From positions 1,620 to 65,619 of the forward strand of contig JAXDJX010000019.1 in NCBI GenBank assembly GCA_034667405.1: a stretch of 64,000 bases of DNA. Direction: 5' to 3'. A program made the position numbers and the translations under genes. The notes below the pieces were generated by a model. The model made no database searches. It was not told the DNA's origin and was given only the letters and a program-made list of their open reading frames with translations. The DNA comes from Actinomycetota bacterium. Its GTDB lineage: Bacteria; Actinomycetota; UBA4738; HRBIN12. Each line of letters opens with the position of its first letter. Within the stretch, counting starts at the first letter, position 1. Positions 10,620 to 64,000 of this stretch are shown here, one piece after another.

Positions 10620-11006
10620 CTACCCCAACACGACGATCCGCTCGGGCTTGATCCGGACGATCACCCGGACATCACCGGGAAGGTGCGGGGCATCCGTGCC
10701 TTCGTAGGCCTGCCACAGTTCGTCGTCGTGGGCATCGGCTCCGTCGTGAGACTCCCCAACAACCACGCCTCGCATCGCGACGGCCAGTGAGGGTGTAGTT
10801 CCGGCATCCACCGAGAGCGCCACCCGGGGATCGCGTCGCATGTTCGCGAGCTTCGCCGTCCCTTCGGAGGTGTTGATCCAGATCTCCTCATCGTGGACGC
10901 TGAGCCACAGTGGGGCGACATGCGGAGAGCCATCGGCTCGAAGGGTGGCGAGATGGCCGACGTTCGGTGCGCCGCAGAGCTGTTCGACCGTGTCCCAACC
11001 CGTCAT
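10620..11006 (-). CDS. Pyridoxamine 5-phosphate oxidase-like (PPOX class, probable F420-dependent) small enzyme
   Basis: About 128 aa starting MTGWDTVEQL...GHLATLRADGSPHVAPLW...RRDPRVALSV, the split-barrel PNPOx-like fold. Its ATG overlaps the TGA of the upstream paralog (ATGA). Confidence 0.7.
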   Translation of the reverse strand: MTGWDTVEQLCGAPNVGHLATLRADGSPHVAPLWLSVHDEEIWINTSEGTAKLANMRRDPRVALSVDAGTTPSLAVAMRGVVVGESHDGADAHDDELWQAYEGTDAPHLPGDVRVIVRIKPERIVVLG

Positions 11007-11398
11007 GGGTAACGGATGATGCGCTCGGGACGGATCCTGTAGAGGACGCGGACCTCGTTGGGCCTGAACGCCCAGGGCTCGTCGTGGTACTTGCGGCTGA
11101 GCATGTCCATATTCTGGTCCGCCTCGGGCCCGGTCACACGATCGCGCACCACGCCGCGCACGGCGACGAACCGGTATGGATCGTTCTGGTCGTGCACGCT
11201 CACGCTCACCCGCGGGTCGCGTTGGACCTCGCGATCCTTCACGCGCCCGGCAGCCGTGTTGACGAGGACGTCGGTGTCGTCGGCGTGAACCCACACAACC
11301 GTCACGTGCGGGTAACCGTCCTCTCCGTTGACCCCGAAGTGCGCCCAGTTCATCCCTTGCAACAGTGTGAGATCGGGCGCGGTCAACTGGTCGGCCAC
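11003..11398 (-). CDS. Pyridoxamine 5-phosphate oxidase-like (PPOX class) paralog
   Basis: About 131 aa from a GTG start (VADQLTAPDLTLLQGMNWAHFGVNGEDGYPHVTVVWV...QRDPRVSVSV). Same family as the downstream gene. The start abuts the aspS stop. Confidence 0.7.
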   Translation of the reverse strand: MADQLTAPDLTLLQGMNWAHFGVNGEDGYPHVTVVWVHADDTDVLVNTAAGRVKDREVQRDPRVSVSVHDQNDPYRFVAVRGVVRDRVTGPEADQNMDMLSRKYHDEPWAFRPNEVRVLYRIRPERIIRYP

Positions 11399-23999: not shown

Positions 24000-24505
24000 C
24001 GCGTGCCCAGCCGCGCGACGGACCGCATCCGGGCGGCGCTCAGGTGGGTGAGCGCGATGGCCACTGCGTCCGCCGCATCCGGTTGGTCCGGCACGGCCTT
24101 CAGTCCGTGGATCCGAACCAACGCATCTCGGACCTGGGCCTTGTCGGCATTCCCCATCCCGGTGATCGCGCTCTTCACTTCGGTGGGAGCGTATTCGTCC
24201 ACCGTCAGACCGGCCTCCGCGGCAACCACCATGACGGCTCCGGTTGCACGCGCCACCTGGAGTGCGCTCACGGTGTTGCGATTGAACGCGACTCGCTCCA
24301 GCGCCACGGTTCCGGGTGCATGGTCCTCGATGGCCCGACGCATCGCGGCCGCGAGGATCCGCAGACGCTCGGCTTCCTCCATGCCCGAAGGGGTGCGGAT
24401 GGTGTCGGCCCACAGGAGGACAGGTGTGCGCTGGGATCGAGCGACGCACGCGAGGCCCATCCGGGCCACGCCGGGGTCCACACCGAGTACGCACGCGTCG
24501 AACAT
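23996..24505 (-). CDS. ruvC: Crossover junction endodeoxyribonuclease RuvC
   Basis: Start at MFDACVLGVDPG (catalytic Asp), RNase H-like fold. The start codon lies inside a LexA box. Confidence 0.85.
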   Translation of the reverse strand: MFDACVLGVDPGVARMGLACVARSQRTPVLLWADTIRTPSGMEEAERLRILAAAMRRAIEDHAPGTVALERVAFNRNTVSALQVARATGAVMVVAAEAGLTVDEYAPTEVKSAITGMGNADKAQVRDALVRIHGLKAVPDQPDAADAVAIALTHLSAARMRSVARLGTR

Positions 24506-24513
24506 CTGTTCGT
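24498..24513. promoter_or_regulatory. LexA box overlapping the ruvC start codon
   Basis: TCGAACATCTGTTCGT. The CAT inside the left half is the complement of the ruvC ATG. It sits between the yebC stop and ruvC. Coordinates approximate. Confidence 0.75.
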
Positions 24514-40274: not shown

Positions 40275-40349
40275 TGGTGGGCGCGGCAGGTTTTGAACCT
40301 GCGACCTCTCGCGTGTGAGGCGAGCGCTCTCCCGCTGAGCTACGCGCCC
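40275..40349 (-). tRNA. tRNA-Val (anticodon CAC)
   Basis: Reverse complement GGGCGCGTAGCTCAGCGGGAGAGCGCTCGCCTCACACGCGAGAGGTCGCAGGTTCAAAACCTGCCGCGCCCACCA folds as a cloverleaf. Anticodon loop CTCACAC, encoded CCA. Confidence 0.85.
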
Positions 40350-44129: not shown

Positions 44130-44204
44130 TGGTGGGCGATGGAGGATTTGAACCTCCGACCTCTTCCATGTCAAGGAAGCGCTCTCCCCCTGAGCTAATC
44201 GCCC
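44130..44204 (-). tRNA. tRNA-Val (anticodon GAC)
   Basis: Reverse complement GGGCGATTAGCTCAGGGGGAGAGCGCTTCCTTGACATGGAAGAGGTCGGAGGTTCAAATCCTCCATCGCCCACCA. Anticodon loop TTGACAT, encoded CCA. Confidence 0.85.
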
Positions 44205-44247
44205 GTGCGGCGTATCGAGGGTACAGCCTGAAGGCCGTGTGGTGCAG

Positions 44248-44318
44248 AGGCGGGGACCGGAATCGAACCGGTGTGCGAGGCTTTGCAGGCCTCTGCCTAA
44301 CCACTCGGCCACCCCGCC
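44248..44318 (-). tRNA. tRNA-Cys (anticodon GCA)
   Basis: Reverse complement GGCGGGGTGGCCGAGTGGTTAGGCAGAGGCCTGCAAAGCCTCGCACACCGGTTCGATTCCGGTCCCCGCCT. Anticodon loop CTGCAAA, U73 discriminator, CCA not encoded. Confidence 0.8.
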
Positions 44319-44494
44319 GGGTGTGCGCGGGCCAGTCTATCGAAGGACACGCGAACGACTCGGGGGACATCGCGGCAGCGGACCTAAGCCACAGCCGCAT
44401 CCATTCGGAAGGTAAACCGTGTACCGCTTGACCGATGCGCCCAGAGGAGTGCCCCGCTACCTTGGCACACCCCACGAACGGAAGGATCCCCCTG

Positions 44495-44794
44495 ATGGCC
44501 CCCACGACGGAAGCGGCACCGGAGCGCATCTACATCTTGCAGCACCGCGACCGCAGCGGCCTGCGAGCCCGTCTGTCGGAGCAGGCCACGCCAGCCCCTC
44601 GTCCGATGGAGATCGACGTCGAACTCCGCGCCGCGATGCTCGAGAGAGAACGCCAAGACAGGCACGGACGCGGTGGGCAATTCTGGAGCGGTGCGGCGCG
44701 GAACCTCGCCCGTCTCCCCGGGGGCAGCCAGATCTCAGGATCGTCCGCGCTGGATACCCTGGATCTCACCGGAAGGTCTTTGCACCTGCGCTGA
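44495..44794 (+). CDS. Small hypothetical protein (about 99 aa) wedged between tRNA-Cys and tRNA-Gly on the opposite strand
   Basis: ATG at about 44495 preceded by GGAAGGA 9 nt upstream. Very high GC3. Product [22 protein letters not shown]... has no recognisable motif. The longer track ORF start (44435) is less likely. Confidence 0.3.
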
Positions 44795-44798
44795 GATC

Positions 44799-44873
44799 TG
44801 GAGCGGACGACGGGATTCGAACCCGCGACCCCCACCTTGGCAAGGTGGTGCTCTACCACTGAGCCACGTCCGC
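44799..44873 (-). tRNA. tRNA-Gly (anticodon GCC)
   Basis: Reverse complement GCGGACGTGGCTCAGTGGTAGAGCACCACCTTGCCAAGGTGGGGGTCGCGGGTTCGAATCCCGTCGTCCGCTCCA. Anticodon loop TTGCCAA, U73, encoded CCA. Confidence 0.85.
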
Positions 44874-49338: not shown

Positions 49339-49623
49339 TCAGGCCGAGGCCGGGACGGACAGACGCTCTCCCGGCACCACGGTCGGAGCCGGGAGGCCGT
49401 TGGCGCGCTGGATCTCCTCGATCACGAGCCGGGGATCCGCGTCTGGCTGAACCGTTCGGGCGATGCTCCAGAGGCTGTCTCCGCGCTGCACCACGTAGTG
49501 ATGGACCTGGGGTCGTTCCGGGCCCGAGAAAGCATGCGCCACAGGTCCTGTCATCATGCCGACGAAGATGCTCGCCCCGATGAGAACCGTTAGGCGGCGC
49601 CGGCGAACATGTGTTCGATGCAT
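49339..49623 (-). CDS. LysM domain protein (Rv2719c-like SOS-associated cell-wall protein)
   Basis: Start about 49623 (MHRTHVRRRRL then TM LTVLIGASIFVGMM). C-terminal LysM (YVVQRGDSLWSIARTV...EEIQRANGL). Divergent from lexA with LexA boxes in between. Confidence 0.65.
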   Translation of the reverse strand: MHRTHVRRRRLTVLIGASIFVGMMTGPVAHAFSGPERPQVHHYVVQRGDSLWSIARTVQPDADPRLVIEEIQRANGLPAPTVVPGERLSVPASA

Positions 49624-49637
49624 GGGACGATGGTGCC

Positions 49638-49653
49638 CGAACGAGCGTTCGAC
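49638..49653. promoter_or_regulatory. LexA box in lexA/LysM divergent promoter region (site 2)
   Basis: cCGAACGAGCGTTCGAc, a perfect inverted repeat CGAAC-N4-GTTCG about 15-30 nt upstream of the proposed LysM gene start. Coordinates approximate. Confidence 0.7.
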
Positions 49654-49665
49654 GTCAAGTGTTTG

Positions 49666-49681
49666 CTCGAACATATGTTTG
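49666..49681. promoter_or_regulatory. LexA box in lexA/LysM divergent promoter region (site 1)
   Basis: cTCGAACATATGTTTGc, about 55 nt upstream of the lexA ATG. Left half perfect, right half GTTTGC. Coordinates approximate. Confidence 0.7.
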
Positions 49682-49736: not shown

Positions 49737-50348
49737 ATGTCTGACATCACTACCCGGCAGCAGCGGATCCTCGACGTCATCGCCGACGCAGTCCGTGATC
49801 GCGGTTACCCCCCAACCGTTCGGGAGATCGGAGAAGCTGTCGGCCTCACCTCCTCGTCCAGCGTCCACGCCCAACTGGCCAACCTTGAGCGGATGGGCCT
49901 CTTGCGGAAAGACGCCACCAAGCCGCGAGCCATGGCCCTGTCCGCCGACGACCACCGGCCGAACAGCGTGGCCGTCCCTTTGGTTGGCCGGATCGCCGCC
50001 GGCTCGCCCGTCCTGGCTGCGGAACAGATCGAGGAGTACGTGGCGGTTCCCGACGGATTCGCCGATGATCGCGACCATTTCGCACTCACGGTCGCGGGCG
50101 ATTCGATGATCGGGGCGGGCATCTTCGACGGCGACATGGTGGTTATCCGCCAGCAGGACTCCGCGGAGGACGGCGACATCGTCGCGGCATTGCTCCCTGG
50201 CCCCGCCGAGGAAGAGGCGACAGTGAAACGACTCGGTCACGACGGGGACCGCGTCATGCTCATCCCTGAGAACCCTGCCCTGTCTCCGTTCGAGATGAAC
50301 GACGGGCGGATCTTGGGCAAGCTGGTGGCGGTTCTCAGGAAGCTCTGA
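49737..50348 (+). CDS. lexA: LexA repressor
   Basis: MSDITTRQQRILDVI... winged HTH. Ala-Gly cleavage site (VGRIAAGSP), catalytic Ser (GDSMIGAGI) and Lys (VKRL). AGGAGG RBS 9 nt upstream. The track 5-prime extension was rejected. Confidence 0.95.
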   Translation: MSDITTRQQRILDVIADAVRDRGYPPTVREIGEAVGLTSSSSVHAQLANLERMGLLRKDATKPRAMALSADDHRPNSVAVPLVGRIAAGSPVLAAEQIEEYVAVPDGFADDRDHFALTVAGDSMIGAGIFDGDMVVIRQQDSAEDGDIVAALLPGPAEEEATVKRLGHDGDRVMLIPENPALSPFEMNDGRILGKLVAVLRKL

Positions 50349-61244: not shown

Positions 61245-62432
61245 TCAGGCCTCGGCGTCGGCTTTCGCCTTCGCTCTCCCGCTGGGCGGGGCGGCGTCTT
61301 CCAGGACGGCATCCGGGATGATCTCGATGGGCTTGTCGGCGTCTTCGCCGAATGACGTGAGTCCGACGGCTTCACGGATCTTGCGCTCGATCTCGTCTCG
61401 GATCTCCAGATGTTCACCCAAGAACTGGCGCGCGTTCTCCCGGCCTTGGCCGAGCTGTTCGCCTTCGTAGGTGAACCAGGCTCCCGCCTTCTTCACGATC
61501 TCGAGGTCGACACCCACGTCGATAAGCGCGCCCTCCTTCGAGATGCCCTTGCCGTACATGATGTCGAACTCGCACTGACGGAACGGCGGCGCGACCTTGT
61601 TCTTCACGACCTTCACCCGGGTGCGGGAACCGACGACTTCCTGGCCGTCCTTCAGGTTCTCGATCTTGCGAACGTCAAGACGGACGGACGAGTAGAACTT
61701 CAATGCCCGTCCACCCGGCGTGGTTTCCGGGCTGCCGAACATGACGCCGATCTTCTCGCGGAGCTGGTTGATGAAGATGGCCGTGGTGTCGAACCGGCTG
61801 AGGGATCCGTTCAGCTTCCGCATGGCCTGGGACATGAGTCGGGCCTGCAGACCTACGTGCGTGTCGCCCATCTCCCCTTCGATCTCCGCTCGAGGGGTGA
61901 GGGCGGCGACGGAGTCAACGACCACGACCGCCAGGGCTGCGGATCGAACGAGCATGTCGGCGATCTCGAGCGCCTGCTCCCCGGAGTCGGGCTGAGAGAC
62001 GAGGAGTTCGTCGATATTCACGCCGAGGGCACGCGCGTAGGTGGGGTCGAGTGCGTGTTCGGCATCGATGAACGCGGCGATACCTCCGGCCCGCTGGGCC
62101 TCCGCGATGATGTGGAGACACACCGTGGTCTTCCCGGATCCCTCCGGGCCGAACACCTCAACGATGCGGCCGCGCGGGATGCCCCCGATGCCGAGCGCGA
62201 GGTCGAGAGACATCGACCCCGTAGGGATCACGCCCATCTCGACGTTCATCGGGTGCTCACCGAGCTTCATGACGGCGCCCTTGCCGAACTGCTTCTCGAT
62301 CTGCTGGAGCGTCACGTCCAGCATCTTGTCCCGGTCCACGCGGTCCTCCTTCTTCCGTTGACGCTTCCCGGGGAGAGGCCGGGCGAGCACGTCTTCCATC
62401 TCTGCGAGCACGCTACTGGACTGGTCTGACAT
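61245..62432 (-). CDS. recA: Recombinase RecA
   Basis: Walker [11 protein letters not shown]1/L2 loops, [10 protein letters not shown]-terminal helix. Roughly 24-aa N-terminal extension relative to typical RecA; an alternative start at MEDVL is possible. Confidence 0.97.
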
Positions 62433-62476
62433 AACTTACACCCCTGTCATTAGACGGGTCGATCCGCGAACCTTAC

Positions 62477-62492
62477 CCGAACAGGTGTTCGA
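62477..62492. promoter_or_regulatory. LexA (SOS/Cheo-type) box upstream of recA
   Basis: cCGAACAGGTGTTCGAac matches actinobacterial TCGAAC-N4-GTTCGA at 11 of 12 core positions. About 45-60 nt upstream of the recA start. Coordinates approximate. Confidence 0.8.
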
Positions 62493-62502
62493 ACGCAAGC
62501 AA

Positions 62503-63065
62503 CTACGGGCCGAAGGCAGACCGGAGCAGCGGTTCATAGATCGCACCCTCGGATCGGAGGTAGCTTCGGAACAGGGTGACCGAGCTGATGGGAAAGGTCG
62601 TTCCGGTAAGGAGGGCCGAGGACCACCCCGGCGGGACCGAGTGGGGGGAACACATCGGCCGAGCGTGACATGGGGGACGTAGGGACCTTGTCGTTGCGGC
62701 AACCATGCCGAAAAGGACGCGCGGACCAGCGCCTCGATGTCCGCGATCCGCCCCTGCTTATCGTCAACCCCGGCCACCAGGACCCGGGCTCGCTGTGCGC
62801 CGACGGGGAACGAGCCGAGCCTCGCTATCGCCGTTCGGAAATGCACGGCTCCCCGGGCAACGTCCGAGAGCGCTGTACTGAGGCCGTCCACCTCCCCTCC
62901 CGGCACCTGGCCCACGAACCCCAGCGTGAGGTGGTAGTTCGCCTCGGGTACCCATCTCACGGATGGCGCACCTCGGAATGGGTCCACACAACGGGCGAGC
63001 ATCACCCGCACATCGGAGGGAACTTCCAGGGCGACGAAGAGCCGCATCCCATCCGAACGGCTCAC
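62503..63065 (-). pseudogene. thpR: RNA 2-prime,3-prime-cyclic phosphodiesterase ThpR/LigT (2H phosphoesterase), disrupted by a frameshift in a C6 homopolymer
   Basis: Frame A (track 62436..63065) carries both H-x-T-x motifs (HLTLGF, HVTLGR). Frame B (track 62503..62706) carries the canonical C-terminus FPISSVTLFRSYLRSEGAIYEPLL. The frames meet at GGGGGG (plus strand, about 62643-62648). Confidence 0.8.
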
Positions 63066-63066
63066 G

Positions 63067-64000
63067 TCAGATCAGGCGGTCGCCGTCGGGCAACGGCCTG
63101 CTCTCCAGGTAGCGGCGCAGCAGATCGAGCGATGCCTGCTCCGCCCAGGCGCGGACACGGTCGCGCTCCCCGGGGGACACGTACCCACGGGCATGCACCA
63201 CATCCTCGGCATGCAAGCCGATCCACACGGTGCCCGGCTCGGCTCCTCCGTGTGGCTCGGGACCCGCCGCACCGGTGAGCGACAGGCCGATGTCGGCCGA
63301 GAACAACCCGCGGACGCCCTCCGCCATCTCCAGCGCGCACTCCTTGCTCACCACCCCCGGCCCGTCGAGCGTCTCCTGCCGGACCCCCAGGACCGACCGT
63401 TTCGCCCCCGGCGAGTAAACGACGGCGTCGCCGATGAGATACGCCGAGGCGCCGGGGACGGACGTGAGCCGCGCGCCCACGCTCCCACCGGTCAGTGACT
63501 CTGCGAGCGCCACCGTCCTGCCCGAATCCCGGAGCAAGCGGCCCACCGCCTCTTCCAGCGTTTCATCGTTCCGAGTGAACACGACGTCGCCCAACCGCCG
63601 TTCGACCTCCGCCACCATCGGTTCGACGAGAGCCAGGGCCTCGCGCTCGGTTGCCGCCTTCGCGGTGATCCGGATCTTCACCTCTCCGTTCGATGCGAGG
63701 TAGGCCAGGCTCGGGTTGGTGCTTCCTTCGAACAGGTCCGCGACGATCTCGGCAACGCGCGACTCGCCGATCCCCGTGGAGCGAAGGGTCGTGGACCGGA
63801 TCACGGCCGGCCCGGCCAACGCACGGAGCTCGGTCAGGATGGTCCCTTCCATCATCTCCACCATCTCGAGCGGGACCCCCGGAACGGCATAGATGCGAAC
63901 ACCGTCGTCGAGTTCGGCGATGAGGCCGGGCGCGCTGCCTCGGATGGGCTGGATGTAGCGGGCCCCCACCGGCACATCCGCCTGTCGAAGGTTGTTCTGG
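63067..64000 (-). CDS. cinA: Competence/damage-inducible protein CinA, N-terminal part beyond window
   Basis: Two CinA domains: a MoCF-biosynthesis-like part ending ...IYAVPGVPLEMVEMMEG, and a C-terminal PncC-like deamidase part (VALAESLTGGSVGARLTS...GVVSKECALEMA). The reading frame continues past 64000. Confidence 0.85.
   Translation of the reverse strand, partial: QNNLRQADVPVGARYIQPIRGSAPGLIAELDDGVRIYAVPGVPLEMVEMMEGTILTELRALAGPAVIRSTTLRSTGIGESRVAEIVADLFEGSTNPSLAYLASNGEVKIRITAKAATEREALALVEPMVAEVERRLGDVVFTRNDETLEEAVGRLLRDSGRTVALAESLTGGSVGARLTSVPGASAYLIGDAVVYSPGAKRSVLGVRQETLDGPGVVSKECALEMAEGVRGLFSADIGLSLTGAAGPEPHGGAEPGTVWIGLHAEDVVHARGYVSPGERDRVRAWAEQASLDLLRRYLESRPLPDGDRLI

Follow-up and report, generated by a model that had tools for sequence, protein, structure and literature searches.

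Near one end of the window (the whole 64-kb stretch of DNA that was analysed), the minus strand carries cinA, thpR, recA and recX in that order, followed by rny, miaB, miaA and further genes (Table 1). The cinA stop codon lies 19 nt before the ATG of thpR, and the full-length cinA product has 422 aa in another contig, L025; the order cinA–thpR–recA on one strand is found in the window, in L025 and in contigs L022 and L026. An identical copy of the RecA protein occurs on four contigs. This RecA has about 35 residues ahead of its Pfam RecA domain (62328–62432), and both the N-terminal extension and the upstream leader are kept in all the relatives, including one with 82% nucleotide identity. Elsewhere in the window, a tRNA-Val(CAC) gene lies at 40275–40349 and a tRNA-Val(GAC)/tRNA-Cys/tRNA-Gly cluster at 44130–44873; the region from 40.0 to 44.8 kb contains several short ORFs without a Pfam match and is the least gene-dense part of the window. 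Two adjacent paralogues of the PNPOx-like (pyridoxamine 5′-phosphate oxidase) family, of 128 and 131 aa and with a 4-nt overlap, are located at 10620–11398; each covers a near-full Pfam profile, so they form a tandem pair rather than a split gene.

Table 1. Features of the cinA–thpR–recA–recX locus, and lexA, in window coordinates.
Feature	Coordinates	Strand	Remarks
recX, 164 aa	60744..61238	-	RecX_HTH1, RecX_HTH2, RecX_HTH3
recA, 395 aa	61245..62432	-	Pfam RecA 1-262/262 + RecA_C
LexA (SOS) box CGAACAGGTGTTCG in the 70-nt thpR–recA spacer	62478..62491	.	Exact palindromic match
Encoded tail, 68 out-of-frame codons (TRSRRGGPRPSL...LMTGV) + TAA	62436..62642	-	Crosses the recA promoter and SOS box
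thpR 3′ part, other frame (B), would encode residues 136–181 (HSVPPGW...SAFGP)	62503..62642	-	Ends at TAG 62505–62503
C6 homopolymer (G6 on the plus strand)	62643..62648	-	One-base deletion site; encodes Pro134-Pro135
thpR 5′ part, native frame (A), residues 1–135 from ATG 63047	62643..63047	-	Both catalytic motifs
cinA 3′ part, runs off the window end	63067..64000	-	CinA, CinA_KH
lexA	49737..50348	+	LexA_DNA_bind 1-65/65, Peptidase_S24 1-116/116

The minus-strand ORF that covers thpR (62436..63065) encodes 209 aa when read from GTG 63065 and 203 aa when read from ATG 63047; the ATG is the start called in both the JGI and the NCBI records, with the GTG as an alternative. This ORF holds the two motifs HLTLGF and HVTLGR that a preliminary description of the DNA had assigned to the first of two thpR frames (frame A), and its product reads MRLFVALEVP...HLTLGF...HVTLGRCVPP, followed by TRSRRGGPRPSLPERPF...LMTGV, an Arg/Ser/Pro-rich tail that is unrelated to ThpR. 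Frame B is open from 62503 to 62706 on the minus strand and reads ...HSVPPGWSSALLTGTTFPISSVTLFRSYLRSEGAIYEPLLRSAFGP, ending at its TAG stop. The two halves meet at the plus-strand GGGGGG where the description had placed the junction, that is, at the C6 of the coding strand. With one C added to the run, the two frames become a single continuous protein, of the 187 aa that had been predicted when counted from the GTG, or of 181 aa when counted from the ATG. With one C taken out, the result is, again as predicted, a short unrelated tail (CVPPLGPAGVVLGPPYRND...CDL, then a stop codon). The sequence features given in the description are all correct.

The coding signal follows the same division. It changes frame, from A to B, at the C-run: past this point frame B has a GC3 of 0.80 and a codon score of +4.1, and frame A has 0.56 and −21. 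Together with the family matches of the frame-B segment given below, this marks a gene in two frames far beyond chance. The encoded tail as a whole (62436..62642) has a GC3 of 0.56 and a codon score of −27, and profile searches with Pfam and TIGR02258 returned zero family matches for it.

Comparison with relatives locates the lesion. A protein search retrieved an intact 181-aa orthologue (P0001) with 91% identity, and two further orthologues at 76–84% identity (P0003, P0004/P0024); the frame-B segment is identical to the C-terminus of P0001 at 40 of 46 positions. The contig that encodes P0001 (L022) shares 97.5% nucleotide identity with the window over 4,712 bp, and the sole gap in that alignment is TTCCCCCCCAC against TTCCCCCCAC, that is, C7 versus C6 with the same flanks. 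A comparison of homopolymer lengths, which the preliminary description had proposed, found that three other contigs (L023, L024 and L026) read TTCCGCCCC at this site (CCGCCCC, 7 nt) and that a GTDB representative (L001, 82% nucleotide identity) has C8; all five relatives are in frame here, and the intact ones stop at the same TAG as the repaired thpR of the window. These alignments show that exactly one base is absent from the C-run of the window. A break elsewhere between HVTLGR and FPISS was considered and excluded, the L022 flanks being identical up to the run on both sides. L001 was the one useful relative in a scan of genome contigs, the other matches being distant, and a scan of a metagenome contig collection with the repaired protein found one distant locus (L027, 34% identity), this collection apparently holding no relevant samples. 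The frameshifted 203-aa product itself (P0002) is on record as NCBI MEA2580660.1, 'MAG: 2,3-cyclic 3-phosphodiesterase [Actinomycetota bacterium]', and also in JGI; the largest contig on record for it is 461,688 bp. A literature search on the assembly, sample and contig accessions found no paper.

One of these relatives, L024 (GCA_034667425.1; 2,971 bp), has two private 1-nt deletions of its own, at L024:290–310 and L024:2895–2910 (window positions 62504 and 59899). The first removes the A of the thpR TAG, whereupon ThpR continues across the SOS box and ends, as in the window, at the TAA that lies 3 nt before recA; L024 thereby attains the same extended frame as the window by loss of a stop codon. 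The second puts rny (RNase Y) out of frame at 68 nt from the end of the contig. Either low coverage led to assembly errors here, or thpR has been hit a second time, independently. The thpR genes of L024 and L026 are identical over codons 82–133 and differ at 25 sites in codons 134–181, where L024 is closer to the window and L022; this mosaic, with a breakpoint near the poly-C site, suggests strain recombination or a chimeric contig.

The gene is identified from its profile matches and motifs as thpR/ligT, encoding a predicted 2H phosphoesterase. The equivalog model TIGR02258 (RNA 2′,3′-cyclic phosphodiesterase; curated cut-off 65.7 bits, passed by both versions) matches the encoded protein with 91.5 bits over profile positions 1–131 of 180, and the +1C protein with 106.7 bits over positions 1–177, so that the frame-B segment contributes 15 bits and 46 profile positions. 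Both Pfam families LigT_PEase and 2_5_RNA_ligase2 are also matched, coverage of the latter growing from 9–121 to 9–147 of 152 upon addition of the C. The profile search that had been suggested for the corrected protein gave near full-length matches to TIGR02258 and 2_5_RNA_ligase2 and characterised the frame-B segment as ThpR-like. As encoded, the protein falls short of a full-length ThpR domain, its C-terminal β-strands being in frame only after +1C.

Both H-x-T-x motifs, H39-L-T41-L and H126-V-T128-L, lie within frame A. An alignment of 22 family sequences shows no variation at the H, T and L of the second motif; in it L159 and S162 are likewise invariant and G168 is near-invariant, and these last three residues all fall in the frame-B segment of the window. 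Residues 1–174 of the repaired protein align with the solved T. thermophilus structure 1iuh, including FPISSVTLFRSYLRSEGAIYEPL versus WPVEGFALVRSELKPKGPVYTVL, and the C-terminal part of 1iuh aligns with the frame-B segment; 2fyh and 1vdx were further PDB matches. The view that frame B carries the family-typical C-terminus is borne out by the identity to P0001, the conserved residues and this structural alignment. The intact orthologue P0001 was modelled with AlphaFold on the 22-sequence alignment (mean pLDDT 93.9); the model places the strand containing H126-V-T128 (residues 126–132) before the break and the strands 151–154, 156–165 and 168–178 all past residue 135. Judged against this model, the encoded product lacks the last three β-strands of the 2H fold, its last 46 residues being replaced by 68 non-native ones. 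With these strands lost, the 203-aa protein is most likely misfolded and inactive.

The 70-nt spacer between the repaired thpR and recA is nearly invariant in L022, L023, L024 and L026, and its SOS box is present in these four and in L001. The box lies 46 nt upstream of the recA ATG and 11 nt downstream of the thpR stop (TAG 62505–62503) that the intact relatives use, which agrees with the earlier proposal that a corrected stop near 62503 would leave it intergenic. The encoded ORF, which was said to run through the LexA box nearly to recA, does so, with 3 nt between its TAA (62438–62436) and the recA ATG (starting at 62432). Exact CGAAC-N4-GTTCG sites number four in the 64 kb: 24499–24512 at the start of ruvC, 49604–49617 and 49638–49651 at lexA, and 62478–62491 at recA. 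With up to one mismatch there are 15 matches versus 4.9 expected, and 0 of 100 shuffles reached 15. The recA SOS box is credible, since exact sites occur only at ruvC, lexA and recA, the window includes the lexA gene, and the box is conserved in relatives; the lexA product would be expected to be the repressor that acts on it. Between lexA and a LysM gene that diverges from it, a third box (49668–49681, one mismatch) lies beside the two exact ones, and nrdR follows the LysM gene, an arrangement (lexA / LysM / nrdR) that is actinobacterial. No terminator-like site was found between thpR and recA, and we infer from this and from the probable cinA–ligT–recA operon of Deinococcus (PMC6300522) that the genes may be co-transcribed. 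A scan of the spacer with the E. coli promoter consensus gave no match; a putative −35/−10 pair that flanks the box (TTGCGT, 17 nt, TAAGGT) was picked out by eye only.

The absence of one base from the C-run can be explained in several ways. The reading that we favour, with a probability of about 0.6, is that slippage truly removed a base from thpR, a gene under weak constraint. A C7 tract coding for Pro-Pro-His would have dropped one C, most likely by replication slippage, and the sequenced population would carry this deletion in an accessory gene that has only recently become a pseudogene. Translation would be native through Pro135, with both H-x-T-x motifs kept, and would then change frame. 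Neither the recA promoter nor its SOS box is altered at the DNA level, and LexA control of recA should stay unchanged; the sole side effect would be that ribosomes on read-through cinA–thpR transcripts cross the recA leader and stop 3 nt before its ATG. Within the clade, dN/dS of thpR is 0.3–0.4, and the codon-usage score of the gene is the lowest in the window (0.03–0.09 per codon versus 0.27 +/- 0.08 for the others). Given this weak constraint, a real loss would be unremarkable. A simple gene caller passed over thpR (62503–63047). Between the window and L022, dN/dS is 0.78 in the C-terminal part (9 substitutions) and 0.46 in the N-terminal part (18), counts that are tiny; there is no clear nonsynonymous excess past the break, so the lesion, if real, is very recent.

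A less probable explanation is a sequencing or assembly artefact: the organism would have C7 and hence an undamaged ThpR of 181 aa, and one C would have been dropped from the consensus at the homopolymer. The lesion does lie in a G/C run, a kind of site at which consensus errors arise, and one in which the nearest relative has one base more between identical flanks, and the downstream frame retains its full coding signal and conserved residues as if nothing were broken. L024, seemingly from the same study (its accession series is adjacent), carries the 1-nt deletions in thpR and rny described above, and with one of them in a housekeeping gene it indicates that the data set can hold indel errors, at least in short, low-coverage contigs; however, that contig is 3 kb long and its deletions are close to its ends (at about 300 and 68 nt), whereas the deletion of the window lies in the interior of a contig of more than 200 kb. 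Two different assemblies, the NCBI MAG and the JGI metagenome 3300049434, carry C6 and the same 203-aa product. The JGI contig Ga0467053_0000021 (214,951 bp) matches the window with 100% identity along 11,565 bp, the C6 among them, and ends at window coordinate 13865, so that the window derives from another assembly, and a longer one. Two assemblies whose contigs end at different points thus agree base for base over 11.5 kb, although both records may share the same reads and so not be independent.

The rest of the window also speaks against an error. No other broken gene was found among the approximately 63 genes called in the 64 kb; 56 ORFs were scanned against Pfam and the other seven have normal length in the JGI calls. 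Adjacent same-strand pairs matching consecutive parts of one family numbered 0 among the 56 scanned ORFs, and the main Pfam domains are covered near end to end, the exceptions being the ORF that the start of the window truncates and a few choices of start codon. Gene calls and Pfam coverage were used for this census because a sliding-window frame plot was too noisy at 66% GC. Other G/C runs inside open ORFs amount to 19 of 6–7 and 86 of 5, all in frame, which argues that homopolymers are not a general source of error in this assembly. The sister contigs, of 1.5–5.7 kb, resemble short-read assemblies, and these seldom have consensus errors at a 6/7-mer. On this indirect evidence a true deletion is the more probable.

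Two further explanations would give the C-run itself a function. A phase-variable locus, in which the poly-C would alternate reversibly between C7 (ON) and C6 (OFF), toggling ThpR and possibly coupling translation of the scrambled ORF to recA, is very unlikely. Tract length does differ between the two closest strains (C6 and C7), with C8 in a more distant relative; the out-of-frame ORF ends 3 nt before the recA ATG; and 7C tracts are documented switching sites in another actinobacterium, M. tuberculosis, where the tract in glpK changes reversibly and recurrently over thousands of isolates with a documented phenotype (PMC6667613, PMC10334774). However, a single OFF allele has been seen, C6/C7 is at the short end of switching tract lengths, and the tract is interrupted (CCGCCCC) in three of five close relatives (L023, L024 and L026), which argues against selection for a slippery tract. 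The 68-codon open out-of-frame stretch has, by our own estimate, a chance of about 0.2 at 66% GC. The suggestion of possible phase variation in the preliminary description found no support beyond the C7 tract of one relative. It is more improbable still that the change from C7 to C6 is a genuine switch that would turn ThpR off, extend the ORF over the recA operator and couple recA translation to thpR on read-through transcripts.

Restoration of full-length ThpR from the C6 allele, by −1 ribosomal frameshifting or by transcriptional slippage on the C-run, has the slightest chance of all. The P-site tRNA-Pro could re-pair by −1 on C-CCC-CCA, and the next 0-frame codon, ACT, should be rare at 66% GC as inferred from the sequence. 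The relatives, however, are all in frame with the same flanks, so that a shift is not conserved; the 96 nt from the run onward have a minimum free energy of −26.6 kcal/mol versus a shuffle mean of −26.9 (z = 0.09); and six C is short for RNA polymerase slippage. Programmed frameshifting was rejected on the in-frame relatives and the absence of downstream RNA structure in this calculation.

The thpR frameshift is thus an ordinary broken gene or a consensus error and no new biological system. Public records name the 203-aa product '2′,3′-cyclic 3′-phosphodiesterase', and its last third is out of frame and overlaps the recA operator. This annotation is misleading, and the product should carry a frameshifted-gene or pseudogene flag. 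A real deletion would add one more case in which slippage has cost a natural population a dispensable gene; a consensus error would be a reminder that homopolymers in MAGs need checking.

The locus can be set beside several known systems. It shares with the ThpR/LigT family (TIGR02258, PF02834/PF13563; 1iuh from T. thermophilus, 4qak and 5ldi from E. coli) the two H-x-T-x motifs and, after repair, a length of about 180 aa, an end-to-end equivalog match and the C-terminal L-x-x-S...G..Y segment; unlike the intact members, the copy in the window is disrupted, with an unrelated 68-residue tail in place of its last 46 residues. The M. tuberculosis glpK tract likewise involves a one-base change in a short poly-C that breaks the frame of a high-GC actinobacterial gene, whereas the window's allele is known once, from one population. 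The order cinA–thpR–recA–recX and the SOS box are already known features. In Deinococcus, cinA–ligT–recA is a probable operon, placed under the IrrE/DdrO radiation response (PMC6300522, Figure 9 legend); the order on one strand is the same, with recX following here, whereas in this MAG, from another phylum (Actinomycetota), recA has its own LexA box in the 70-nt spacer right after thpR. That box is of the usual actinobacterial/Gram-positive operator type (CGAAC-N4-GTTCG, Cheo-box type), an exact palindrome upstream of recA as likewise at lexA and ruvC, and the sole oddity here is its overlap by the frameshifted ORF.
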